Shown here: in pieces, positions 6,422-46,792 of the stretch
Position numbering within the stretch: position 1 is the stretch's first letter
Layout: each line of letters starts with the position of its first letter
Notes under the pieces: model-generated
What the model was told of the DNA's origin: nothing
The model's input: the letters and a program-made list of their open reading frames with translations, nothing else
Databases searched by the model: none
Made by a program: the position numbers and the translations under genes
Source: Planctomycetota bacterium
Lineage (GTDB): Bacteria > Planctomycetota > Phycisphaerae > UBA1845
Direction: 5' to 3'
DNA: 64,000 nucleotides
Assembly (NCBI GenBank): GCA_024275565.1
Contig: JAJRYY010000009.1
Location: 636-64,635 of the forward strand

Positions 6422-8236
6422 ATGATAAATCGCTTCCCAAGAGGACGACGGCTTCGCGTGTTGATGCTGCGCATTCTGGCCCGTGGCGGGTTCAAGGAGG
6501 AGTACTTCCTCATCACGCTCGCACTGCTCATCGGGGCAGCCACAGGGCTTGGGGCGCACCTCTTTTTCGAACTGATCGAGTATGCAACGCACCTTGCATA
6601 CGGCGCGAGCGATGGACTGTTCGCCGGGCGACCCTACATGATTGTCGTCATGCCGGTCGTGGCAGCCCTGGCGGTCGGTGCCATGACATACCGCTTCGCC
6701 CGTGAGGCCAAGGGGCACGGTGTCCCCGAAGTGATGGACGCGATATATCGCCAGGGTGGCGTTATCCGTGCCCGCGTCGCGATCGTCAAAGCAGTGGCGA
6801 GCGCCCTGACCATCGGGTCTGGCGGGTCGGCTGGGACCGAAGGACCGATCGTGCAGATTGGGGCGGCGGTTGGTAGCGGATTTGGACAATTTCTCAATGT
6901 CGAGCGCCGCCAGATGGGGATCCTGGTGGCATGCGGGGTGGCGGGCGGAATCGCAGCCATCTTCAACGCACCGATCGCCGGGGTTCTGTTCGCACTTGAA
7001 ATATTCCTGAAAGATTTCTCGCTCCGGGCCTTCGCACCGGTCGTATTCGCAAGCGTCATCAGTTGCTCCATCACGCACGCGCTTCGCTTCGGCGGCGGGG
7101 ATGTCGCCATTTTCCAGGTATATCAGGACGCTCAATACAATTTCAGCGGTCTGGAGCTTCCCTATTTCCTCCTCCTCGGCGTTCTCTGTGCGATCGTCGC
7201 AGCCGTGTTCATTAAATCACTCTACGCTGCCGAGGATCTCGCGGACCGTCTCACAATCCCCGATTACCTGAAACCAGCGATCGGCGCCTTTGGACTTGGT
7301 ATTCTCGGACTCATCTTTCTACTGACAACTGAGCCTGGCAGCCATCAAATGCCTTCGTTTTTTGGGAACGGGTATACACTGATTGAGACAGCCATCTCCC
7401 CGAAAGTATTCAACGAGGGCGTGGGATTACTCCTGCTGCTGCTCGTACTCAAGATATTGGCCACCTGCCTCACGCTCGGCAGCGGCGGATCGGGTGGTAT
7501 TTTCGCACCTTCGCTGTTCATGGGTGCGGTAACTGGCGGAGCGTTCGGACTCATCCTCTACCAGGTCGGACTGATCCCGCAAGACAGCATCACAGCCTAC
7601 GCACTGGTAGGGATGGCTGCCGTGCTGGCTGGCACCACGCACGCTCCACTCACCGCCATTGTGATGCTCTACGAAATAACACGCGAACCCAAGGTCATCC
7701 TTCCGATCATGTTCGCAGCCATCGTGGCTACTACCGTCGCCCAGAATCTCTGCCGCGACAGCATCTACACGTTGAAATTGCGACGCCGAGGTGTTCGCGT
7801 CGGGACGCTGGCAGACCTGACGATTCTCAAGGGCATCTCAGCCCACCAGGTCGCCACCTCCCCCGCAGTCCTTGTCCACCCCGAAGACCCCCTGCAGAAG
7901 CTCATCGACCTTGCGACCGAAAATGAAACGGGGGATTTTGTCGTGGTCGACCCGGACGGTGCGTTCCAAGGCCTGGTCATCGCAGAGGACATCCGCACCG
8001 CCCTGTTGCAACCGGAGGCGGTCCCGTTGCTGCTGGTGGGCGAGCTGCTCCGTCAGGGGATCCCGATTATCGACCCCGATGAAACTCTCGACAATGTGAT
8101 GGACGCGTTTGCGAAATCCAATGTCCAGTCGCTCCCGGTCGGTATGGACAACAACTCCGACCACGTGAAATGCCTCATCACGCGTCAGGCAGTCATGACC
8201 CGATACCACCAGGAATTTGAAGTGCATTCCGACTGA
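6422..8236 (+). CDS. ClC-family voltage-gated chloride channel/antiporter with C-terminal CBS pair
   Basis: Selectivity-filter motifs GSGGSAGTEGP and GSGGSGGIFAPS, multiple TM helices, and a C-terminal CBS-like region. The start is uncertain (6422 or the ATG at 6464). Confidence 0.9.
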   Translation: MINRFPRGRRLRVLMLRILARGGFKEEYFLITLALLIGAATGLGAHLFFELIEYATHLAYGASDGLFAGRPYMIVVMPVVAALAVGAMTYRFAREAKGHGVPEVMDAIYRQGGVIRARVAIVKAVASALTIGSGGSAGTEGPIVQIGAAVGSGFGQFLNVERRQMGILVACGVAGGIAAIFNAPIAGVLFALEIFLKDFSLRAFAPVVFASVISCSITHALRFGGGDVAIFQVYQDAQYNFSGLELPYFLLLGVLCAIVAAVFIKSLYAAEDLADRLTIPDYLKPAIGAFGLGILGLIFLLTTEPGSHQMPSFFGNGYTLIETAISPKVFNEGVGLLLLLLVLKILATCLTLGSGGSGGIFAPSLFMGAVTGGAFGLILYQVGLIPQDSITAYALVGMAAVLAGTTHAPLTAIVMLYEITREPKVILPIMFAAIVATTVAQNLCRDSIYTLKLRRRGVRVGTLADLTILKGISAHQVATSPAVLVHPEDPLQKLIDLATENETGDFVVVDPDGAFQGLVIAEDIRTALLQPEAVPLLLVGELLRQGIPIIDPDETLDNVMDAFAKSNVQSLPVGMDNNSDHVKCLITRQAVMTRYHQEFEVHSD

Positions 8237-8362
8237 GAAGTAAAATCCGACTGAGAAGTAAAATCCGACTGAGAAGTACAATCCGACTGTGAAGTGCATT
8301 CCGACCGAGAAGCACATTCCGACTGAAAGTACAATCCGACAGAAAAGTGCAATCTGACCGAC
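8219..8362. repeat. about eight copies of an 18-bp tandem repeat that begins in the last codons of the ClC gene
   Basis: The unit is gagaagtaaaatccgact with variants. The first three copies repeat the stop codon in frame, with TGA at 8234, 8252 and 8270. Confidence 0.9.
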
Positions 8363-17518: not shown

Positions 17519-18850
17519 TCAGGATCGACCGTTTCGACCCAGTTTGACAGGGGTTGCCTCGAACTGCTCCTCCTCGGTTGATCCTGCCAGTGCGGTCGTT
17601 TCAGCCGCCCCGCCAGTGACGAGAGTCTGGATTTTGTCGAAATATCCGGTTCCGACGAACCGCTGGTGCTTGGTGGCCTGGTATCCGAAATCTCGGTCGC
17701 TGTCGAATTCATGCTCCTGAAGTGAAGCGTAGGCGGTCATGCCCTCGTCGCGGTATTTTCTAGCCAGCTCGAACATGCCGAGATTAAGACAATGGAAGCC
17801 CGCCAGAGTGATGAACTGGAATTTGTATCCCATCGCGCCCAGCTCTCGCTGGAACTTTGCGATCGTTGCGTCGTCGAGCTGGGCCTTCCAGTTGAAGGAG
17901 GGGGAACAGTTGTAGGCCAACAGCTTTCCGGGATATTCGGCGTGGACTGCCTCGGCGAATCGCTTTGCCTCGCCCAGGTCGGGATGGGCAGTTTCGCACC
18001 AGATCATGTCGCAATGTGGGGCGTATGCGAGGCCTCGGGCGATGGCAGCGTCCATCCCGCCATTGAACCGGAAGAAACCCTCGCTTGTGCGCTCACCAGT
18101 GATGAATGGCCGGTCCCGCTCGTCTGTGTCGCAGGTGAGAAGCTTGCAACCATTGGTGTCGGTGCGTGCGACAAGGACAGTTGGAACGCCGCAGACATCG
18201 GCCGCCATCCGTGCCGCAATAAGTTTCTGGATGAACTGGTCAGTGGGGACCGCCACTTTTCCGCCCATATGACCGCACTTTTTAGCGGACGATAACTGAT
18301 CCTCAAAATGCACGCCGGCGGCGCCAGCTTCGATCATGAGTTTCATAAGCTCGTATGCGTTGAGGTTGCCACCGAACCCTGCTTCCGCGTCTGCGACGAT
18401 CGGTGCGAACCAGTACTTACCCGTCGGATCGTCGCTCATCTGATCCACCTGGTCGGCGCGCATGAGCGCTGCGTTGACCCTTTTAACAACATTTGGGACG
18501 CTATCGGAGGGGTAGAGACTCATGTCGGGATACATTTGACCCGCAAGGTTCGCGTCGGCGGCTACCTGCCAGCCGGACATATAGATTGCTTTCAGTCCGG
18601 CCTGGACCATCTGAACAGCCTGATTTCCGGTCAATGCTCCGAGTGCGTGGACATAATCCTCGGTATGCATGAGGCTCCAGAGGCGTTCTGATCCGAGTGT
18701 TGCGAGTGTGTGCTCGATTTTGACGCTGCCGCGAAGCTGGATGACATCCTCAGCCGTGTAGGGTCGTACAACGCCTGCCCAGCGCGGATCCTTCTTCCAA
18801 TAATCCTGCATCTGCTGAACAATGACGTCGCGGTTACCGTTGATAATCAT
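17519..18850 (-). CDS. aceA: isocitrate lyase
   Basis: Catalytic motif KKCGHMGGK and full-length ICL similarity. The start is set at the ATG at 18850, which has a GGAGGAG Shine-Dalgarno 6 nt upstream. The ORF track begins at a TTG at 18871. Confidence 0.95.
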
Positions 18851-18946
18851 ATTTTTCTCCTCCGGGTTCAATATCCCAGTCTTGGCTTCCTGTTGTTTAG
18901 CTTTCTATATTTGTAGTTTCCCAGTTTCAGCGTCCCAGTTTCAGAT

Positions 18947-20608
18947 TCACTTGTTTTGCAGCTTCCCCAATAGTTCGTATGCGGGGAGCGTTAGAAAATC
19001 GACGAGCGTTTCGTCGGTTGAAATGCGATCGAAGATGTCTGCGGCTTCGACGAAAGCACCCGCAGCGAAACGCTCTTCTCCGACCCCTTCTCTGATATGT
19101 TTCAGCTCATCGCGGAGCATTGATTTGAAGAGTTCTTTCGTGATGACAACGCCATCTGTCTGCGCAACAGTTCCATCTGCCCGCTTGACATATCCATCAG
19201 ACAGCTTTGCACGGTGGCGGATCCATTGCCATATCTGTGTGCGTGAGATTTCAGCAGTGGCAGCGTCTTCCATAAGATGATAGAGCGGTACGCAGCCATT
19301 CCCGCGTAACCAGCTTTCCAGATATTGGACGCCGACACTGATATTGTGTCGAAGTCCTTTCTCCGTAATATTCCCACGCGGAACTTCGAGCAGATCGTTC
19401 GCCGTAACCATGACATCCCCGCGTGGCCGATCGATCTGATTCGGGCCTGGCATTTTTTCGTTGAATATATCCATTGCAGTCGATACCAGTCCGGGGTGCG
19501 CCACCCACGTCCCATCATGCCCTTCTTCAACTTCGCGTAATTTGTCTGCACGGACTTTGGCGATGGCTGCTTCGTTTGCCTTCGGATCAGATTTTATCGG
19601 AATCTGTGCAGCCATACCGCCCATGGCATGGGCACCTCGGCGGTGACATGTTTGAATGACATACCGTACATAGTTCCGCATCAATGGAACGGACATCGAT
19701 ATCTGGTCACGGTCCGGTAATACAAATCTGGAATTATTTCGGAATGTTTTAACAAAACTGAAAATATAATCCCAACGTCCGCAATTCAGACCGGCTGAGT
19801 GGTCCCGAAGCTCGTACAGAATTTCATCCGCTTCAAAGCTGGCCAGCACATGCTCAATGAGCACGGTTGCCTTGATCGATCCACGCGGGATGCCCAGTTC
19901 GTCCTGAGCGGTCTTGAAGAGGTCGTTCCAGAGTCGTGCTTCGAGGTGGTTCTGCAATTTCGGAAGATAATAATAGGGTCCAGAACCGTTATTGAGCAGC
20001 GTCCTGGCGTTGTGGAAGAAGTACAGCGCAAAATCGAAAATGCTACCGGAAACGGGTTGATTATCGACCCTGAGATGTTCCTCAACCAGATGCCAACCTC
20101 GCGGGCGGATCATGAGCGTCGCAGGATGATCGAAGAGTTTGTATTGCTTCCCTTCGGAGTTTGTGAATGCGATGGTGCGATTGACTGCATCACGCATGTT
20201 TATCTGCCCCTGGACCATGTTGTCCCAGGTTGGCGAATTGGAATCCTCAAAGTCTGCCATGAAACATTGCACGCCACTGTTGAGGGCATTGATGACCATT
20301 TTTCGATCGGTGGGTCCGGTAATCTCCACGCGTCGATCGCGCAGGTCATTCGGTATGGGCGCTATTTTCCATTTCGATTCCCGGATCCCCTCAGTCATTT
20401 CCAGAAAACCGGGCATATGCCCGGCGTCAATATCGCATTGGCGATCGATACGCTTGTTCAGGAGGTCGATGCGTGTTGCGTTATGGGACCGGTGGAGCGT
20501 CGCAATGAACGCGAGCGCCTCTGGTGTAAGGATTTCTGCGTATTCGGGCGTCACCAGCCCATTTATGGATATACCGTCCGTTACAACTGTCGCAATGCGC
20601 GCAACCAT
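18947..20608 (-). CDS. aceB: malate synthase A
   Basis: Motifs [13 protein letters not shown] and RPRGWHL, with full-length similarity to malate synthase A. The start is either the ATG at 20608 or the GTG at 20614. Confidence 0.92.
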
Positions 20609-20759
20609 ACTCACCCCTTTTTTCCAAAGGAAATATCGTTATCGGTGCATGTTCAATCGAGAAGTATGCCAGGAAACGACTCCATACATACTGCATTATG
20701 GGTCGTATTACTTTTCCCCTTTCCATCTCGTACGTATCATTCGTAGCGATTGAAGAATA

Positions 20760-25022: not shown

Positions 25023-25320
25023 GATATTGCTCGCACAGATGTACCTCGACCCGGCAGTTTTAGACTGCACTTTCAGGCTGCACCGGATCATTGATCCACA
25101 CGTCCATGATACCACGCCTCCAACACCTCCTTCAAGCACAATCGGCCCGAAAATACGCCTTCCCCTGACTTAATCCAGATCGCGCCGATCCATCGGAATT
25201 TCGGTCGTTCCGCCCTGATGCTGATTGGGTCCGATCTTGTCCCATCGCGCTCTGAGACTGAAGCGGATTGACATTCGTAACCGGATGACCCATCCTTGAT
25301 CCATGTAGCCAAGCCGCAGG

Positions 25321-25480
25321 GTGCCACTGGCGGCTTGCCCGCCAGTGCTTACGCAGGGTGCCGGGCCGTGTGGCCCACCTCTTCAGAGGTGGGGGAGCCG
25401 AAGATCAACCGAACATCCCCCAAGACCGCGTAAATCAATAGCAAAGCGCCGCGTGCCACTGGCGGCTTGTTCACCAGTGC
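25321..25480. repeat. composite REP-like element: two GTGCCACTGGCGG-CTTG-xCCGCCAGTG hairpins flanking a GTGGCCCAxxTCTTCAGAxxTGGGGGAGCCGAAGA module
   Basis: Hairpins at 25321-25348 and 25453-25480, with the central module at 25368-25411. The same modules recur at 46604-46792. Confidence 0.7.
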
Positions 25481-35998: not shown

Positions 35999-36110
35999 GA
36001 ATTTAGTGGCGTACGCGTTCCATGGGGGTTTCGTCGGGCGATCGGCGCGGGTATGAGATGTGGCATAGTGTTGGTAATGCATGATCAGGTTGCAGACTTA
36101 GGGTGGAGCG

Positions 36111-37022
36111 ATGATGGCATTTTTGCGGTTGATGCGTCCGGCGCAGTGGATCAAGAATCTGGCGGTGCTGGCTGGTCCTGCGTTTGCGATGCAGTTTGGC
36201 GAGGACGCGGTCTGGAACACGCTGTTGATTTTTGTAGCGTTTTGTCTGATCTCGAGTGCAAGCTACGCGATCAATGATGTGATGGATCGTGAGGCTGACG
36301 CGTTGCATCCCAAGAAGAAGACGCGTCCGATTGCGTGTGGGGATGTGTCGCCGGGGGCTGCGATCGTTCAGGCGATCCTGCTGGTGGTGGCTGGCGTGGG
36401 GTTGAGTGCGAAGATGCTGCCACTCGGATGTACGGTCATTCTGGTGGCGTATTTTGTGGTGATATTGTCTTACTCGCTGGCGTTGAAACGCCGGATGATT
36501 CTGGATGTGATTTTGATCGCGGTGGGGTTTGTGCTTCGGGCGACAGCCGGTGCGGAGGCGGTCGAGGTTGTGGTGTCGCCGTGGCTGATCGTTTGTACTT
36601 TTACGATTTGCTTGTTCATGGGGTTCGGTAAGCGGCGATGCGAGATTGCTCAGTTTGGGTCGCTGGAGGAAGCCAGCGAGCATCGGCTGACGTTGCTTCG
36701 GTATACGCCGGAGTTTTTGAATCATCTGATCAGCGTGTCAGCCGGGATCGCGATCATGACGTTTTTGCTCTACACGATGGATCGCAACCCGGAGTATGCA
36801 CCGCCGTTTCGGAAGGACCATCTGCTGTACACGATGCCGCTGGTGGTCTATGGGGTGTTTCGGTTTGCCATGCTGGTGCAGAGCGGGAATCGCCAGGGGC
36901 CTATGGATATCATCGTGCGGGATAAGCCGTTTATCGGGACGATCGTGATCTGGGGCCTGCTGGCGGTTGCGATTATGACGGAGAAGTACTGGCTGGCAGC
37001 GGTCGGGTTCGGGGCTGGGTGA
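36111..37022 (+). CDS. UbiA-family prenyltransferase (decaprenyl-phosphate phosphoribosyltransferase-like)
   Basis: Polytopic membrane protein with the NDxxDxxxD motif (NDVMDREAD) and an MRPAQWIKN N-terminus. Confidence 0.85.
   Translation: MMAFLRLMRPAQWIKNLAVLAGPAFAMQFGEDAVWNTLLIFVAFCLISSASYAINDVMDREADALHPKKKTRPIACGDVSPGAAIVQAILLVVAGVGLSAKMLPLGCTVILVAYFVVILSYSLALKRRMILDVILIAVGFVLRATAGAEAVEVVVSPWLIVCTFTICLFMGFGKRRCEIAQFGSLEEASEHRLTLLRYTPEFLNHLISVSAGIAIMTFLLYTMDRNPEYAPPFRKDHLLYTMPLVVYGVFRFAMLVQSGNRQGPMDIIVRDKPFIGTIVIWGLLAVAIMTEKYWLAAVGFGAG
36699..36804 (+). repeat. left copy of a ~106-bp direct repeat (inside the UbiA-family gene)
   Basis: Matches 38893-39000 except for four substitutions and one 2-bp indel, by manual alignment. 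Confidence 0.85.
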
Positions 37023-37162
37023 TTGTGGATAAAGTTAGGGGATTATTACATGGTTGAAGGAAAAAATAACTGCGTCCCCCGTTTCAAGTCACCCGTATTA
37101 CACCCTACTCAATCCAATCGCCGCAGACGGATGAAGAGTTACATTAGATCCAACCTATGGAG

Positions 37163-37804
37163 TCAAATGAACTTATCGAGTTCATCGGGATTCTTCAGAA
37201 ACGTCTTGATCAACTCACCGCGCTTTAGCAACCAATCTGAATGCCCGAGGTCTTTCCGCATCGCCCGTAGTAGGTCATCCATTGCAACCAGGATATTCAA
37301 ATCACTATTTTCTGACGCTACACGAAACTTGCCGTATGCCTGAATGACATCACGCGACCCCCATATGACAAGATCAGTGACGAATTCCTGGTAGAAAGAC
37401 ACCAGTTCCGTGTTTTCTGCGATAGCGTTGCCCGAGTTGTCATTCTTGTACTTAATCATCACGTCCATGACTTTCTTGATGAACCTGACGTAAAGCTGGA
37501 TTTTCTGCGGACGATGCGATTCCGAAATCTCGCGCGTTTTAGATCGCTGCTGGGAAATAATGACAGCACCGAATCCGACAATAGACGTTGCGGCGCCAGC
37601 GATAATCGCAGCAACGACTTCGGACTCCACCGATGACAACCATCTCAGAACGACAAGCCCGCCCATCCGTATCCCAACAAGAATGCCCATTACGATCGCG
37701 ATTGCGGATAAGGTAGGAAGAGCCGCGTAAACTCGACTCATCCTATTATTCGAATTCGTTCCTATGTCGGCAAGCACTTCGTCGCCTGGGTTGAGCTTGA
37801 TCAT
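37163..37804 (-). CDS. hypothetical membrane protein (island cargo)
   Basis: 213-aa ORF in the AT-richer segment, with two predicted TM helices in the N-terminal half and a soluble C-terminal half. No family recognised. Confidence 0.55.
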   Translation of the reverse strand: MIKLNPGDEVLADIGTNSNNRMSRVYAALPTLSAIAIVMGILVGIRMGGLVVLRWLSSVESEVVAAIIAGAATSIVGFGAVIISQQRSKTREISESHRPQKIQLYVRFIKKVMDVMIKYKNDNSGNAIAENTELVSFYQEFVTDLVIWGSRDVIQAYGKFRVASENSDLNILVAMDDLLRAMRKDLGHSDWLLKRGELIKTFLKNPDELDKFI

Positions 37805-38233
37805 CGGTTGAGCTCGCTATTCAGTTTCATCGAGGCGCTGTTGAATCGCATCCGGGTATTGAAACGGGGACGTAGCTAGCTAAGACGCTCCCCATCATAT
37901 GGGCATGTCCATTGCGACCGTATGCCAACGCGATGCTTGTTCTGGACATGCGTTGTTGCCTTCTGCCGTTGAATTGATGGCCCAGTATATATTGTTGCCT
38001 AACAGAAGTCAAATATGGGATTGGCATGGCTGTGCGAGATGGTTGTGATGTTGAGGTCGGTTTTTTGCCTGTATATTGGAGATTTTGGTGGTTTGGGGGA
38101 CGGGTGACGCGTTGGGTTTGTCGATGTCGGGCAATGCCCGACCTACCTTCCGGCGGGTGAAACCCGCCCTGCAGGGGTTTCATGAGCTATTTCCGGTCTT
38201 AACGTCCGAATAATGGAACACGGTTTGACTAGA

Positions 38234-38260
38234 ACGACTTAGTCGTGTAGACTAAGTCTA
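38234..38260 (+). promoter_or_regulatory. two adjacent 13-bp palindromes, candidate TA operator
   Basis: ACGACT-T-AGTCGT (38234-38246) and TAGACT-A-AGTCTA (38248-38260). They share a GACTnAGTC core, and the second abuts the antitoxin ATG. Confidence 0.5.
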
Positions 38261-38505
38261 TGGGGATGGTAAACATCCACTGAAGCAGCAAGACGCACCT
38301 CTCGAAATTGCTGGAGCGGATTGCGCGCGGTGAAGAGATTATCATCGCCAAGGCAGGCAAGCCCATTGCACGATTGATCCCCTATACTGATCGCCACGCA
38401 CCGCGCGTTGGCGCTCAGTGGAAAGGTCTTGTCCGCATCCATGAAGATTTCGACGAACCCCTGCCTCCAGAGATGAATGCAGGATTCATGGGTGAAGGCC
38501 CGTGA
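38260..38505 (+). pseudogene. Phd/YefM-type antitoxin interrupted by an in-frame TGA at codon 8
   Basis: The translation reads MGMVNIH*SSKTHLSKLLERIARGEEIIIAKAGKPIARLIPY... The stop is at 38281-38283. The only intact ORF starts at a TTG at 38308 and lacks the N-terminal strand. Confidence 0.7.
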
Positions 38506-38884
38506 GTGGTTACCTGCTGGATACGCACGTCATTTTGTGGTGGCTGGATGAGATCCCACCCAATTGTCTTCTGAGGCTTGCGAGGCGATTTCAGACGCGG
38601 ATAATGATGTGTTTGTGAGCGCTGCCGTCGCCTGGGAGATGGCGATCAAGAAATCCATCGGGCGCCTCGACATTCCCGGCAATCTACCAGACGTGCTCAG
38701 TTCTGACATCATTAAGGTGCTAGACATCAACATCCATCACGCCCTGGCTGTGGGTGATTTGCCGATCCTCCTCCAGGATCCCTTCGACCGCATTCAGATC
38801 GTTCAGGCCAATCTGGAAAATCTGATCCTGATTACCCACGACAAAAGAGTTCAGCAATACGACGTGAAATGGTGGGCCACCTGA
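38502..38884 (+). pseudogene. PIN-domain (VapC-like) toxin with a frameshift near 38550
   Basis: A GTG overlaps the antitoxin stop (GTGA). Frame 1 gives VSGYLLDTHVILWWLDE and then stops at 38616. The rest of the PIN domain (DPTQLSSEACEAISDADNDVFVSAAVAWEMAIK...DPFDRIQIVQA) is in the next frame. Confidence 0.75.
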
Positions 38885-38892
38885 TCAGGTTA

Positions 38893-39000
38893 CGGTATAC
38901 GCCGGTGTTTTTGAATCATCTGATCAGCGTGTCAGCCGGGATCGCGCGATCATGACGTTTTTGCTCCACACGATGGATCGCAACCCTGAGTATGCCCCGC
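38893..39000 (+). repeat. right copy of the UbiA-gene fragment (non-functional, 2-bp insertion)
   Basis: Sequence cggtatacgccggtgtttttgaatcatctgatcagcgtgtcagccgggatcgcgCGatcatgacg... Similarity to the UbiA gene ends at about 39000. Confidence 0.85.
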
Positions 39001-39511
39001 GACCTGCCCCCATTTTATGTACTGAAAAACATCCTGATGATCTGCCAACCGGAGTTGGTGAATCACCTGTTTACACGGGGCGTAACGACCTCGAGCCGAG
39101 CAATGACGGGTCTTGAAATTCCACCGCCCAGCCCCAACGCCTACCTGTCGATTTGACGAATATCAGCCGTCCAGAGAGGCTGCCGCCGATTTCTTCTTTG
39201 CCAGGCTGGATATGCCCGGCGGCGTCCATCTCTGCAGAGCGGCGTCCATCTCTGCAGAGATGTGCGATGCCATCCAGCAACACTTCAAGCAGCCTTGAGT
39301 TACTCCAAACAGCCTTGAATTCGTACCGGATTATGCTAAAGTAGTGCTTCAGATTTCATCTGATGGGGAAAACCTGCCCCAGAACGCACGTTGTCGCATT
39401 TCGAATTTGTCAACGCTCAGGTTTCGCGAGCGGCGGGGTGATTGTTCATCTCAGAAGCATTGGTCGCAGGTGAAAAGCAAAATTTACTCAGACAGGAAAG
39501 GAGTCCTACTT

Positions 39512-42500
39512 ATGCACAGGACGCTCTGTGGAACCGTTGTAATGTTGGCTGCCATACTCACCGGTGACGTGCTACTCGCACAATTCCAGGCCGGTCCGGT
39601 TTTACCAATCCTCGGCCCCATCAGGCAGGGAGGTTTTGAATGGCCTGATCAGGGTAACGATTTTGCGTACACGCCGGGAGGATCGTTTTGGGCATTCACT
39701 GGCGGAACCGGACTGGCCGGCAACGGCAGTGGGTTCACACGTTTCAATCCCCCCGCACCCCAGGGAGACCAGGTCTGCTTCATACAGAATGCTTCGAACA
39801 GCACAGTGAGTCAGAAATTCATATACCCCGCTGGCCGATACAGATTCAGGGTCAAAGCTGCCCAGCGCCTGCGAGGCAACGGAAATCTTGACCAGCAAAC
39901 TATCAGCTTGCGGATCGATGGCACGGAAATACTCAGCATCACCCCGCCCGATGAAAACTACACCCAGTACATCACCGATTATATTCTGCTGGACAGCTCG
40001 TCCCACGTGCTCACGTTTGTCGGCATGCAGAACGGTGGAAACTCCGCTTTTATCGACCAGGCGCAGGTTCAGTCCCTCAACGCAACCGCAGACAACTGGT
40101 CGGACCCAGGCACATGGCAGAATGGGGTCGTACCCGGTCCAACCGTGGATGCCACGATTCCCCTCGGCCAGACGGTTCTGCTGGATACTGACGCAAATGT
40201 CAAATCACTGACGGTCTTGGGATCGCTGTATTGCAAAGACGACGACGTATCCATCACAGCAAACTTCATCAATGTCTCAGGCTGGTTCGAATGTGGATCG
40301 GAAACAAGTCCACATCTTCAAAATATGACCATGACACTCAACGCGCCCCACAATCACCCTCCATGCACTCCGCCTGAAACTCCGAACTGTGAACAGACCA
40401 CCTGCGATACCCGATGCGATGGAACCTTTGAACCGTCGACGAAACACCTCATGGCCATACAAGGTGGAACCATCGAACTCCACGGCGAACCGCGTCTCAG
40501 CTGGACACAGATAAGCGCCACAGCAGCCGTCGGTGACACATCGATTACCGTCATTGACCCGGTCGACTGGCGCATCGGTGATCAGATTGTCATTGCACCC
40601 ACTTCAGAGAATACCAACGAAGGAGAAGAAGTCACCATTACCAACGTCAGCAACAACGGGCTGACCATAGATTTCACCCCAGGACTGCAATTCGAACATT
40701 ACGGAGAACAGACCACATACAACAACGGGGTGACTTCCTGGGTTCTCGATGAACGCGCGGAAGTGGGCCTGCTGACACGCAACATCGTGCTGAAGGCTGC
40801 CGAAGGAACAACTTCAGACGGTTACGGTGCACACATGATGACCATGAATGGTGCATTCTCCCGTGTCTCGGGCGTTGAGTTTTATCAGGTAGGCCAGGCA
40901 GGTCATCTCGCCCGATACCCCTTCCACTGGCACCTCGCAGGCGATGCCACCGGACAATACATCAGAAACTGCTCAATTCACAACAGTTACCACCGATGCG
41001 TCACCCTTCATGGAACCAACAACGCGGACATATCGGACAACGTATGTTACGATATCCTGGGACATGCCTACTTCATCGAAAATGGCACTGAAGTCGACAA
41101 CACATTCGATCACAACCTGGGAATCCTGACCAGAAAGGTACCGAAAGTAGATGCGGTACTCGAATCCGATTATCGCAATGGCTCTGCATCCAATGGTCCA
41201 GCCACCTTCTGGATTCGTCACCCGGACAACATCTACACGAACAATGCAGCCGCCGGTTCTGAGGGTTCGGGCTACTGGTACGGCATGCTTCAGGGCGATG
41301 ACTCACTATTTGCCCAGTTCGGGAAGTTTGAAAACAACCGTGTCCACTCATCTCGGCAGGGGTATACAGCCTGCAGCAACCCAAGCGGTCCACACGGAAT
41401 GAATCCACCAACACCGGCGGTTCTCCAGGGACTCACCGTCTCCAACTGCAAACAGGGGGTTTGGCCATGTGCAGCCAGCCAGACAGCAGAAAAGTCGATC
41501 TTCAAGAACATGATCGTCGCAAACTGCGAGAATGGATTTCAGGCACCCAATCCGGTCGCTCTGGAAGACTCGCTGTTTGTCGGGTATTCGAACAATGCCC
41601 CGCAGGCAGCCGAACTCGGTAGCAACTCAAACTGGCGAGGCGTTCAGGTATACGATCAGGGGTTCCTTTTCACCAATATACACTTTGAAAACTACGATCG
41701 CCCGTTCATGACGGCCTTCTTCCCAGGCGGAGGGGCCCACAAACATGCAAATAACCGCGCCATAGGCCTGACATTCAACAATGCCCCCAATGTATTCCTT
41801 GACCCAAACAACTTCTGGAAGATCGGCAACGTCCCCGGATGGTGGGGAGACGTGATACACGATCTCGACGGAAGTCTGGTAGGCGATGACTGGGCCTTCG
41901 TGGCAGGCCATCCCGTCATGTTCGATCGAACATGCACTCAGCCAACCAACATGAACACCGACGGATACGCATGCCCCTATCGCTATGCCCATTTCCGAAG
42001 CGAACACTTCGCCTCCATCGATCCGATCACCGTGATTCGGTCCGACGGCTATAGCAACACAAGTGGTCATATCAATGCCCGTTTCATCACGGAAATCATC
42101 ATGGATGACTCTTACTTCTACACATACCGCTACTCCACAGGGCTGAAGTTCAAAAAGCTTCAAGTCTCACTGCGGAACGCCTTCGGCGGCGACAACGCGG
42201 TGTACGAGTTCCTGGACGTCCCGTCGACCTTCAGCATTCCAACCAGCGGTTGGCAGCAGGCTTCTTCAGTGGACGATCTCATGACAGGCGCGGGACACCG
42301 ATATGTCTGGCGAGACCATTCGCTGTTCCTTAAGATGCAAGCCAGCGGTGATGACTGGCATGCGACCGACATAGTCGACATTTGCCTGAGAGACGTCAAT
42401 TGTGCACTAACGCATGAGGTAGGAACGCCACCTGTGGTAACGATCACCGCCCCACCGGACGGCGCTCGCTACCCCGTGGGTGCAGGCGTCATCGTACGAG

Positions 42501-45144: not shown

Positions 45145-45215
45145 CAAGAGGGGCGGGATTCGAACCCGCTACCGCACGGTTAAACCGTGTGCTCTTACCA
45201 GATGAGCTACCCAGG
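45145..45215 (-). ncRNA. tRNA-like element B (class-I-like, 5-nt anticodon loop, degenerate 5' acceptor strand)
   Basis: Canonical D arm (TAGCTCATCTGGTAAGAGCA) and T arm (GCGGGTTCGAATCCCGC). The anticodon arm is CACGG-TTTAA-CCGTG. The 3' acceptor strand CCCTCTT pairs with the 5' strand only at GGG/CCC plus one terminal pair. Confidence 0.6.
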
Positions 45216-45298
45216 TGGTCTGGACAGGAATCGAACCTGCTTCACTGTAAGGTGACAGCCCTTAACAGGCTGCGCTCGACCATCGAGCATCCAGAACC
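45216..45298 (-). ncRNA. tRNA-like element A (class-II-like with a 15-nt variable arm and non-canonical positions 4, 8 and 33)
   Basis: GGTTCTGG-AT-GCTC-GATGGTC-GAGC-G-CAGCC-TGTTAAG-GGCTG-TCACCTTACAGTGAA-GCAGG-TTCGATT-CCTGT-CCAGACC-A. The acceptor stem needs a bulged T. G replaces U33 and A replaces U8. Confidence 0.6.
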
Positions 45299-45503: not shown

Positions 45504-46520
45504 TTACGCGATAGATATAACGATGGCGCGACTGTCCTCACGTTCCGTTTCGATCTCAACGTCAAGAAACTTACCAATCAGATCAACATGCGTTTCAGAA
45601 TGACGAGACAATCCCGTAGACCGAAACGTTCCAGACCCCGCGATCGCCATCGGCAGCAACAACTGATCCGTCAGATACTCTCCAACCGGAGCAGATGACC
45701 GAAGATAACGCTGACACTGCTGAACCGCATGGGAAGCGACAGCCTCAGCAGCTCGACCAACCTCACCGAAACCCGTAAAAACTTCCGTCACGTTCTCATA
45801 CCCAAGCTCGATCGTCACAATATTTCCAGGACCCACAGGGCGATCGATCTCAACAACTTCCGCTTCACCCTCATCCCAACCGAGACGCTTCCGCATGACG
45901 CGAACTTCCCGATCAGCGATCTTCCGATCAAGACTCGATACAACCGCCCGCCCACATCGCCGCACCAGATCGCCACGCTCCACAATGCTGATCCCACCGA
46001 AAGATTCAGCAGGTGTCACATCCACAACCATACGTCCCCCACCCGCCGGATAGAACCCATACCTCTCAAGGGTCACCGATACCTTCGGACCCATCCGATT
46101 CACAAGCGGAAGGTACGACCGCTCAAGAAAGTCAAACGGAGGTGCATACGGATTATGCGTCCCGCCCTCAAGCACGATCCGACTCGGCGCTTTCGCAAGT
46201 GCAAGCGGAAGCAAAATCGTCTGCAGCACAAGCGTCGTACTACCCGCCGTCCCAATACTGAACGTATAATCACCACCCACAGCCACACCCGGAACAAACA
46301 CCAGCTCGGTCGAACCCATCTCATCGCCCTCGACCTTACACCGCCCAATCTCAGCAGCAGCACGGACAGCCGTAAGGTGTTGTCGCAGCAGTCCGGGCTT
46401 CCTCCGCTTCGCACGAATATTCTCAATTCGAAACGCCCTACCCGTAACGATCGACAGCGCAAGGGACGATCGCAATATCTGCCCCCCGCCTTCACAAAAT
46501 GAACCATCAACCGTCAACAT
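45504..46520 (-). CDS. rtcA: RNA 3'-terminal phosphate cyclase
   Basis: MLTVDGSFCEGGGQILRSSLALS N-terminus and full-length RtcA similarity. The start is set at the ATG at 46520 with an AGGAGG Shine-Dalgarno; the ORF track begins 15 codons earlier. Confidence 0.92.
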   Translation of the reverse strand: MLTVDGSFCEGGGQILRSSLALSIVTGRAFRIENIRAKRRKPGLLRQHLTAVRAAAEIGRCKVEGDEMGSTELVFVPGVAVGGDYTFSIGTAGSTTLVLQTILLPLALAKAPSRIVLEGGTHNPYAPPFDFLERSYLPLVNRMGPKVSVTLERYGFYPAGGGRMVVDVTPAESFGGISIVERGDLVRRCGRAVVSSLDRKIADREVRVMRKRLGWDEGEAEVVEIDRPVGPGNIVTIELGYENVTEVFTGFGEVGRAAEAVASHAVQQCQRYLRSSAPVGEYLTDQLLLPMAIAGSGTFRSTGLSRHSETHVDLIGKFLDVEIETEREDSRAIVISIA

Positions 46521-46603
46521 CACAACAACCTCCTGGAAAGAACAATTCATCGACAGGGCGACCATGTCTTCCTAACAACAGGGCGCCCATATCTTCTTCA
46601 ACA

Positions 46604-46792
46604 GTGTGGCCCATGTCTTCAGACATGGGGGAGCCGAAGACCACCCGCACAGCAACCCAAACTCTAGCCAAGCCTCAGGGTCCACTGTACGGACCACCAT
46701 CACAACATAAAACGGGTCCCACCGGCGACTCGTCCGCCAGCGTGCTTCATCACAGCATAAAACGGGTGCCACTGGCGGCTTGTCCGCCAGTG
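46604..46792. repeat. REP-like hairpin cluster inside the rtcB-rtcA spacer
   Basis: Module GTGGCCCATGTCTTCAGACATGGGGGAGCCGAAGA (46604-46646), hairpin GGTCCACTGTACGGACC (46679-46697), and a tandem ~50-bp duplication with one CCACyGGCG...CGCCAG hairpin in each copy (46714-46742 and 46766-46792). Confidence 0.8.

Follow-up and report, generated by a model that had tools for sequence, protein, structure and literature searches.

A decayed partial repeat of a UbiA-family gene brackets a small low-GC islet in a Phycisphaerae metagenome contig

Background

The subject of this analysis is a 64,000-nucleotide stretch of a Phycisphaerae (Planctomycetota) metagenome contig (JAJRYY010000009.1, positions 636 to 64,635; hereafter the window), in which an intact gene for a cell-envelope prenyltransferase of the UbiA family and of the decaprenyl-phosphate phosphoribosyltransferase type shares a direct repeat with a short, dead fragment of the same gene lying further downstream. 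We refer to the copy within the gene as R (36699-36804) and to the fragment as R' (38893-39000), both on the plus strand. Between them lie the 3' end of the gene and an islet of foreign composition, which carries a membrane-protein gene and a dead toxin-antitoxin pair. R' is a relic without function, derived from codons 197-231 of the UbiA-family gene of this genome itself or of an almost identical allele from the same species, and it marks where a direct duplication or insertion of 2,194 bp ends. The repeat is an ordinary rearrangement scar without present function, and this scar probably stems from DNA that was once inserted into the end of the UbiA gene. Only the UbiA gene and, probably, the membrane-protein gene appear to be functional in the locus today.

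An earlier reading of the same DNA (the original prediction) had seen in this arrangement the scar of an element that integrated at the 3' end of the gene, lost its integrase and then decayed. We compared the locus with 55 related species-level UbiA loci, all from Phycisphaerae-type metagenome-assembled genomes (MAGs). None of these relatives is close enough to serve in an empty-site comparison, the nearest UbiA protein being only 70% identical. A synteny comparison revealed no flanking gene common to the window and the 55 loci, and exact-protein look-ups with the window's own proteins, made for the same synteny and empty-site comparison, returned no match.

A direct repeat derived from the UbiA-family gene

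The UbiA-family gene (36111-37022, plus strand) is an intact open reading frame (ORF) of 303 codons, whose product matches the Pfam UbiA domain (5.6e-26) and, over residues 2-292 of 303, the NCBIfam family NF008977 with 239.7 bits against a cutoff of 234, that is, a full-length match above the curated threshold of the family. Among 5.8 billion proteins, its best homologue outside its own contig displays 70% identity. R begins at codon 197 and comprises codons 197-231 plus one nucleotide, thereby covering RYTPE.LNHLISVSAGIAIMTFLLYTMD, where conservation along the protein is highest. The alignment of R (106 nt) with R' (108 nt) bears out the repeat as it was first described: the two copies are in direct orientation and 96% identical, set apart by four substitutions and by a 2-nt insertion of CG in R' (at about 38943-38944). 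In a self-comparison of the window by BLAST, this pair is the strongest repeat of all (E = 7e-41), 26 orders of magnitude ahead of the runner-up (8e-15). Each half of the repeat occurs exactly twice in the window, with no occurrence expected in shuffled sequences.

Examination of the differences reveals which copy is decaying. R retains the glutamate of the YTPE motif and the tyrosine of the LLYTMD motif, both of which are invariant in the aligned homologues; R' has these residues changed to valine and histidine, respectively, next to two silent changes, and its CG insertion moves the frame into a TGA stop, in keeping with the original observation that the right copy is out of frame. As the two non-conservative changes at family-invariant residues and the frameshift all fall in R', it is the unselected, decaying copy. 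This bears on the notion that R and R' are maintained as a functional switch, in which RecA-mediated deletion of the intervening 2.2 kb would turn the prenyltransferase off or alter its C-terminus. Direct repeats of about 100 nt can indeed recombine, and an ORF corresponding to the resulting fusion exists at 38952-39116; however, disabling changes are accumulating in R', the product would lose 72 conserved residues and nothing comparable is seen in the 55 related species, so that a switch of this kind is scarcely credible.

With regard to its origin, R' displays 96% identity to the UbiA gene of the window itself, but only 72-82% to the same stretch in other species, which points to the gene of this lineage rather than a distant orthologue as its source. 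The ends of R' are abrupt: the C-terminus of a PIN-domain toxin lies to its left, and no UbiA C-terminus lies to its right. It is cut off 218 nt (72 codons) before the stop codon of the gene, with the similarity ending at 39000, and searches of 39001-39511 by blastn, tblastn and the family hidden Markov model (HMM) recovered no remnant of a UbiA C-terminus or of the DUF362 gene discussed below; on this point, too, the first description was accurate. The same abruptness argues against a metagenome-assembly artefact, in which R' would come from a strain variant wrongly joined into the contig. In support of such an error, the sequence has been encountered just once, in one 70.8-kb contig for which there is no independent assembly; yet the presence of non-UbiA sequence on both sides of R' would require two mis-joins within 108 nt, the longest exact block between R and R' is 36 nt and the flanks do not contain a single k-mer of the gene. 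We therefore hold an artefact to be very improbable.

The DNA to the right of R' (39001-39511) is unconstrained intergenic sequence 5' of a gene for a G8/CEMIP beta-helix protein. It contains a perfect 20-bp tandem duplication (GCGGCGTCCATCTCTGCAGA x2) at 39219-39258 and a second such pair, 85% identical, at 39282-39321. It also contains the segment CCGGAGTTGGTGAATCACCTG (39049-39069), in which 18 of 21 bases equal positions 36708-36728 of R, and which encodes PELVNHL, the family consensus being PELLNHL. A third and older UbiA remnant spanning 39049-39215 was considered and rejected as probably a chance resemblance (BLAST E = 1.8; Smith-Waterman p of about 0.02 against shuffles; -1.9 bits with the family HMM).

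The bracketed insert and its cargo

The segment from the UbiA stop codon to R' (37023-38892) has a GC content of 0.505 as compared with 0.555 for the window, placing it in the lowest 0.4% of equal-sized windows and upholding the earlier description of a lower-GC insert. The shift in composition begins at the stop codon itself, with an AT-rich spacer of 140 bp (37023-37162). GC falls to a comparable level at just one other place in the window, approximately 18450-20600 (minimum 0.50), which overlaps a 555-amino-acid minus-strand ORF (18947-20614) with a GC content of 0.516.

Beyond the spacer, on the minus strand, lies an intact gene (37163-37804; GC 0.486) for an all-helical protein of 213 amino acids, whose true start is probably Met22 (37741). 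The protein contains two N-terminal transmembrane helices followed by a helical C-terminal domain, and its AlphaFold2 model has a pLDDT of 82. Searches against Pfam, NCBIfam, PADLOC and PHROG returned no family, and the model displayed no fold match in the PDB or BFVD. It had been put down as an orphan membrane protein on the opposite strand; the strand and the membrane location hold, while the orphan status does not, as about 66 homologues (20 proteins and 46 metagenome loci) were recovered. The 213-aa protein is hence a member of a small unnamed family rather than a singleton. Family members are about 190 amino acids in length and share strongly conserved motifs, namely REI..SHRP.K..LY, WGS and AMRKDLG. 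The homologues (L056-L114) occupy non-syntenic neighborhoods, in which the most common neighbouring domains are HSDR_N, Fic, reverse transcriptase, Schlafen/AlbA, HTH, Zeta toxin and Eco57I; one group of near-identical contigs has HigBA and a HEPN-helicase/sacsin-like block next to the gene. Such unrelated neighborhoods, rich in defence and toxin genes, mark the membrane-protein gene as accessory and of the sort commonly carried by defence and toxin-antitoxin islets.

Upstream of this gene's start, the non-coding stretch of about 450 bp with two tight hairpins that had been reported is present (37805-38259, 455 bp), and most of it (37805-38223) reads as a divergent promoter region, with a candidate minus-strand promoter at 38012-37984. 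Both hairpins could be located (38126-38142 and 38152-38168), and they prove to be special neither statistically nor structurally: the region folds no better than shuffled sequences (z = -0.05), and each hairpin is unique in the window and without a T-tract. Roles as terminators or as members of a repeat family were rejected on these grounds. A six-frame Pfam scan of the stretch recovered no gene remnant, and Rfam and tRNA scans of 36000-40000 gave nothing relevant.

The remainder of the insert is a toxin-antitoxin cassette on the plus strand. Its promoter (38224-38259) consists of TTGACT (38225-38230), a 17-nt spacer and TAGACT (38248-38253), and is overlapped by a 9-bp inverted repeat (GACTTAGTC at 38236-38244 and GACTAAGTC at 38250-38258); this promoter and inverted-repeat element is conserved in a homologous cassette from another Phycisphaerae MAG (L066). 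The first gene is a pseudogene of a Phd/YefM-type antitoxin (38260-38505), in which +1 and +2 insertions in codons 8-10 place an in-frame TGA at codon 8 (38281-38283). The remaining ORF still matches the Pfam PhdYeFM and NCBIfam phd_fam models (21.6 bits against a cutoff of 20.8), and intact homologues are 80 amino acids long. The second is a pseudogene of a VapC-type PIN toxin (38502-38884; Pfam PIN 1.6e-10), whose GTG start overlaps the antitoxin stop in the sequence GTGA (38502-38505), and which is frameshifted by a 2-nt GA insertion at about 38550-38553. The lesions were confirmed against the intact L066 homologue, and with them the decayed state that had been ascribed to this pair.

When its frame is repaired, the PIN toxin is 88% and 80% identical to intact homologues of 126 amino acids. 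Since the closest kin of the UbiA protein reaches 70% at most, the cassette has nearer relatives elsewhere than the gene beside which it lies. The alignment with the L066 cassette further reveals 75% nucleotide similarity that begins at the -35 box (38224) and ends precisely with the PIN stop codon (38884), and R' begins 8 bp past the end of this similarity to an independent cassette. The R' junction thus coincides with the boundary of the cargo. The disabling lesions in this part of the window (38281-38290, about 38550-38553 and 38943-38944) are all short insertions (+1, +2, +2 and +2), mostly duplications of the adjacent di-nucleotide; their presence in both the toxin-antitoxin pair and R' suggests a bias towards slippage insertions in the unconstrained DNA of this genome. 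R' and both genes of the pair merit annotation as pseudogenes.

A broken linkage downstream of the gene

Among the 50 relatives in which at least 600 bp are available 3' of the UbiA gene, 40 (within L001-L051) encode a DUF362 protein directly downstream on the same strand, for example at L001:7379-8560 and L005:11054-12250. The median gap between the two genes is about 45 bp, and the DUF362 product, of approximately 394 amino acids, displays 70-82% identity from one species to another in most cases. The two loci whose UbiA proteins are most similar to that of the window (L002 and L004) have a gene for an SDR epimerase-like protein in the place of DUF362; no further flanking gene is conserved among the relatives. 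Neither a DUF362 gene nor an SDR epimerase-like gene is found anywhere in the 64-kb window, so that the one conserved linkage of the UbiA gene is broken exactly at the insert and R'. Both the pairing with DUF362 across the Phycisphaerae and its absence here are contextual observations new with this analysis. So tight a pair suggests a functional link between the two proteins, for which this genome offers a natural case of separation.

How the arrangement may have arisen

We propose, as the leading though still tentative candidate, that a circular DNA was inserted into the UbiA gene in a Campbell-type event and that the displaced 3' end was later deleted together with the downstream partner, because this single account unites most of the observations: it covers the repeat and its cargo, the junction that coincides with the cassette boundary, and the loss of the partner gene. 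The circle would have carried a 3' segment of a UbiA gene (codon 197 to the stop), the membrane-protein gene and the Phd/PIN cassette, and a single crossover in or close to codon 197 of the chromosomal gene might have been either site-specific, as for prophage e14 at icd, or RecA-mediated. The incoming 3' end would have kept the gene whole, with the original 3' part being displaced 2.2 kb downstream. A later deletion would then have removed the displaced copy from codon 232 on, along with the original operon partner; any recombinase would have been lost, and the toxin-antitoxin pair and R' would have decayed through small slippage insertions. Were R and R' to recombine today, the cargo would be deleted but the UbiA gene would be truncated at the same time, which suggests that the cargo is locked in.

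Several elements of the original integration-scar inference stand: the gene-derived repeats bracket the 3' end and foreign cargo, the gene is full-length with its last 72 codons and stop (36805-37022) inside the bracket, as had been stated, and R' is decaying. To these the present analysis adds the junction at the cassette boundary and the loss of the operon partner. Other elements find no support, and a number of results weigh against an integration. There is no integrase or transposase among the ORFs between the repeats or among those large ORFs that were checked from 24 to 64 kb, and no recombinase emerged from six-frame scans of the non-coding segments 37805-38262 and 38995-39515. The displaced original 3' end was sought after R' by blastn, tblastn, Smith-Waterman alignment and the family HMM, and was not found. 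The bracketed unit measures only 2.2 kb, and an integration history calls for at least two or three subsequent deletions. A deletion is needed in every model to explain why R' stops at codon 231. The membrane-protein gene and the toxin-antitoxin pair are adjacent at none of 57 other loci, and the idea that they form one travelling unit was given up on that account.

The present 3' end of the gene also looks native. It exhibits no compositional break, and the last 72 codons have the same unusual third-position usage, G-rich and A-poor, as the 5' part (chi-square p = 0.27). Neighbour-joining bootstraps did place the 5' 196 codons with one group of homologues (80%) and the 3' 99 codons with another (90%), with a switch at about amino acid 197; after outgroup polarisation, all the sites behind this switch turned out to be private changes of the first group, at which the window gene is ancestral. 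The signal of a chimeric UbiA gene that the informative sites and bootstraps had seemed to offer was accordingly discarded as evidence. The window's 3' end and the second group have no derived state in common, and at amino acid 256, within the 3' segment, a derived residue is shared with the same group as the 5' part. A 3' end donated from within the species would leave no such signal of ancestry.

Comparative searches likewise weigh against an integration. A partial UbiA duplication at this gene occurs in 0 of the 55 related species. The search for related elements that the original prediction had called for came back empty: there is no UbiA 3' fragment in IMG/VR viral contigs, 36600-39100 has no match in plasmid and phage collections, the 55 loci hold no such element, and a 26-mer from R matched none of the metagenome contigs scanned. 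One might still envisage that the 3' third of the UbiA/DPPR-synthase gene serves as the attachment site of undescribed, very small hitchhiker elements of the Phycisphaerae devoid of a recombinase, with the present locus as a grounded copy; such elements would combine a 3' fragment of the gene with defence and toxin-antitoxin cargo and would be mobilised in trans. We regard this as a long shot.

The native appearance of the 3' end is better accommodated by an in-situ tandem duplication of 36699-38892 through illegitimate recombination, at a time when the cargo was already present, followed by a deletion that left the first 106 nt of the second copy; this deletion would have run from codon 232 onward, possibly into DNA beyond the second copy. 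In favour of this scenario, the genome's own gene is the nearest match to R' (96%), and both composition and polarised phylogeny give the 3' end a native appearance; a mobile element becomes unnecessary, consistent with the absence of a recombinase from the ORFs and stretches scanned and with a site that is not recurrently used in the 55 species or in viral contigs. The neighborhood is, moreover, prone to small duplications, as witnessed by the 20-bp tandems at 39219-39258 and 39282-39321 and the di-nucleotide insertions in R', the PIN gene and the Phd gene. On the other hand, a right end only 8 bp past the toxin-antitoxin cassette would be a coincidence, and there is no microhomology at the novel junction, where T precedes R (…GCTT) and A precedes R' (…GTTA), although this is a weak test since blunt junctions do occur. 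Further, the co-occurrence of foreign DNA and a missing partner at the same spot is left unexplained, with separate events being needed for arrival, duplication and deletion. On balance we consider a tandem duplication less likely than the insertion of a circle, yet a serious contender.

The shortness of the duplicated segment could also be explained by a one-step templated patch, whereby break repair or template switching during replication, downstream of the toxin-antitoxin cassette, copied 106 nt of the UbiA gene as filler. The duplication is confined to these 106 nt and breaks off sharply at either end, its source is found on the same strand at a distance of 2.2 kb, and one event would be enough. 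Nevertheless, microhomology is lacking at both junctions, the mechanism is poorly documented in bacteria, and neither the missing operon partner nor the coincidence with the cargo boundary is explained; a patch of this kind is accordingly improbable. If the insertion of a circle, which we favour, is correct, the locus would be another example of an island that became locked in after the loss of the displaced 3' end, and would furnish a first hint of this gene as an insertion site in the Planctomycetota. The stakes beyond annotation are small; the by-products that lend themselves better to reuse are the pairing of UbiA with DUF362 and the small family of membrane proteins.

Other features of the window

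Outside this locus, tandem tRNA-like elements occur on the minus strand at 45150-45298, just downstream of the gene for RtcA (45504-46565, minus strand). ARAGORN predicts a 'tRNA-Stop (tta)' here, and the Rfam tRNA model scores 40.6 bits, above its gathering threshold, at 45150-45212; a tRNA-Sec-like match (31.6 bits) and a YrlA/Y-RNA-like match (25.6 bits) do not reach theirs. One possible identity is a YrlA-like RNA belonging to an Rtc RNA-repair locus. Two intergenic regions 21 kb apart (25306-25415 and 46604-46792) share dispersed repeats of 48 nt at 85% and 29 nt at 96.6% identity, and a 70-nt tandem repeat (8218-8287 and 8290-8358; 86% identical) is located at the end of the ORF at 6422-8236.

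Comparison with known systems

The closest parallel to an insertion of this kind is E. coli prophage e14, which is flanked by icd, a gene that extends into the prophage, and by the icdC pseudogene, a 3' fragment of it (PMC13626634). As with e14 (and phage 21) at icd, the bracketed DNA would be an insertion towards the 3' end of a housekeeping gene, which would have stayed intact through duplication of that end, and a partial, pseudogene-like fragment of the gene forms a direct repeat at the far end, with copies that differ by a few percent (PMC13626634); direct repeats of the target gene, R and R', flank the insert. The two differ in that e14 has an integrase, spans 15 kb and still excises, and its icdC reaches the stop codon, whereas in the window no recombinase was found, either inside the unit by a would-be att site or elsewhere in the parts scanned, the far copy lacks the last 72 codons, the unit measures 2.2 kb and its excision would truncate the gene. 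Nor is the same site occupied by related elements in the 55 species loci or the viral contigs.

A second parallel is offered by cis-mobilizable elements (CIMEs), small blocks without integrase or transfer genes that are bounded by att-derived direct repeats where a housekeeping gene ends (PMC6323972); the 3' end of the Streptococcus thermophilus gene fda is one such site. Like these, the islet in the window has no integration or transfer genes of its own. However, CIMEs keep an intact attL and attR and have a cognate integrative and conjugative element (ICE) using the same site, whereas R' is truncated and carries four substitutions and a 2-nt insertion, and no cognate ICE, integrative and mobilizable element or recombinase for this site was found in the 55 related loci, the window, IMG/VR, plasmids or phages. 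Remnants of ordinary tandem duplications, in turn, resemble the locus in that the second copy follows directly on the first segment, both copies come from the same genome and a recombinase is not needed; they differ in that their end points are arbitrary, while here one of them equals the boundary of an imported cassette and the operon partner has been lost as well.

The cargo itself is readily recognised as a type II module of the Phd/YefM-VapC(PIN) type. A small antitoxin gene is followed by an overlapping PIN toxin gene with the matching domains, and the gene order, the GTGA overlap, the promoter with its operator-like palindrome and the 80-88% identity to 126-aa toxins all conform to such modules. 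In them both frames are intact, whereas here each gene has been disabled by insertions, the antitoxin by +1 and +2 changes leading to TGA and the toxin by a +2 change. Taken together, a degenerate, repeat-bracketed islet without a recombinase at the 3' end of a housekeeping gene is a known kind of structure, represented by e14 at icd and by CIME-like remnants. What is new is the gene concerned, in a phylum that has received little study, and the locus departs from the established examples in several features.

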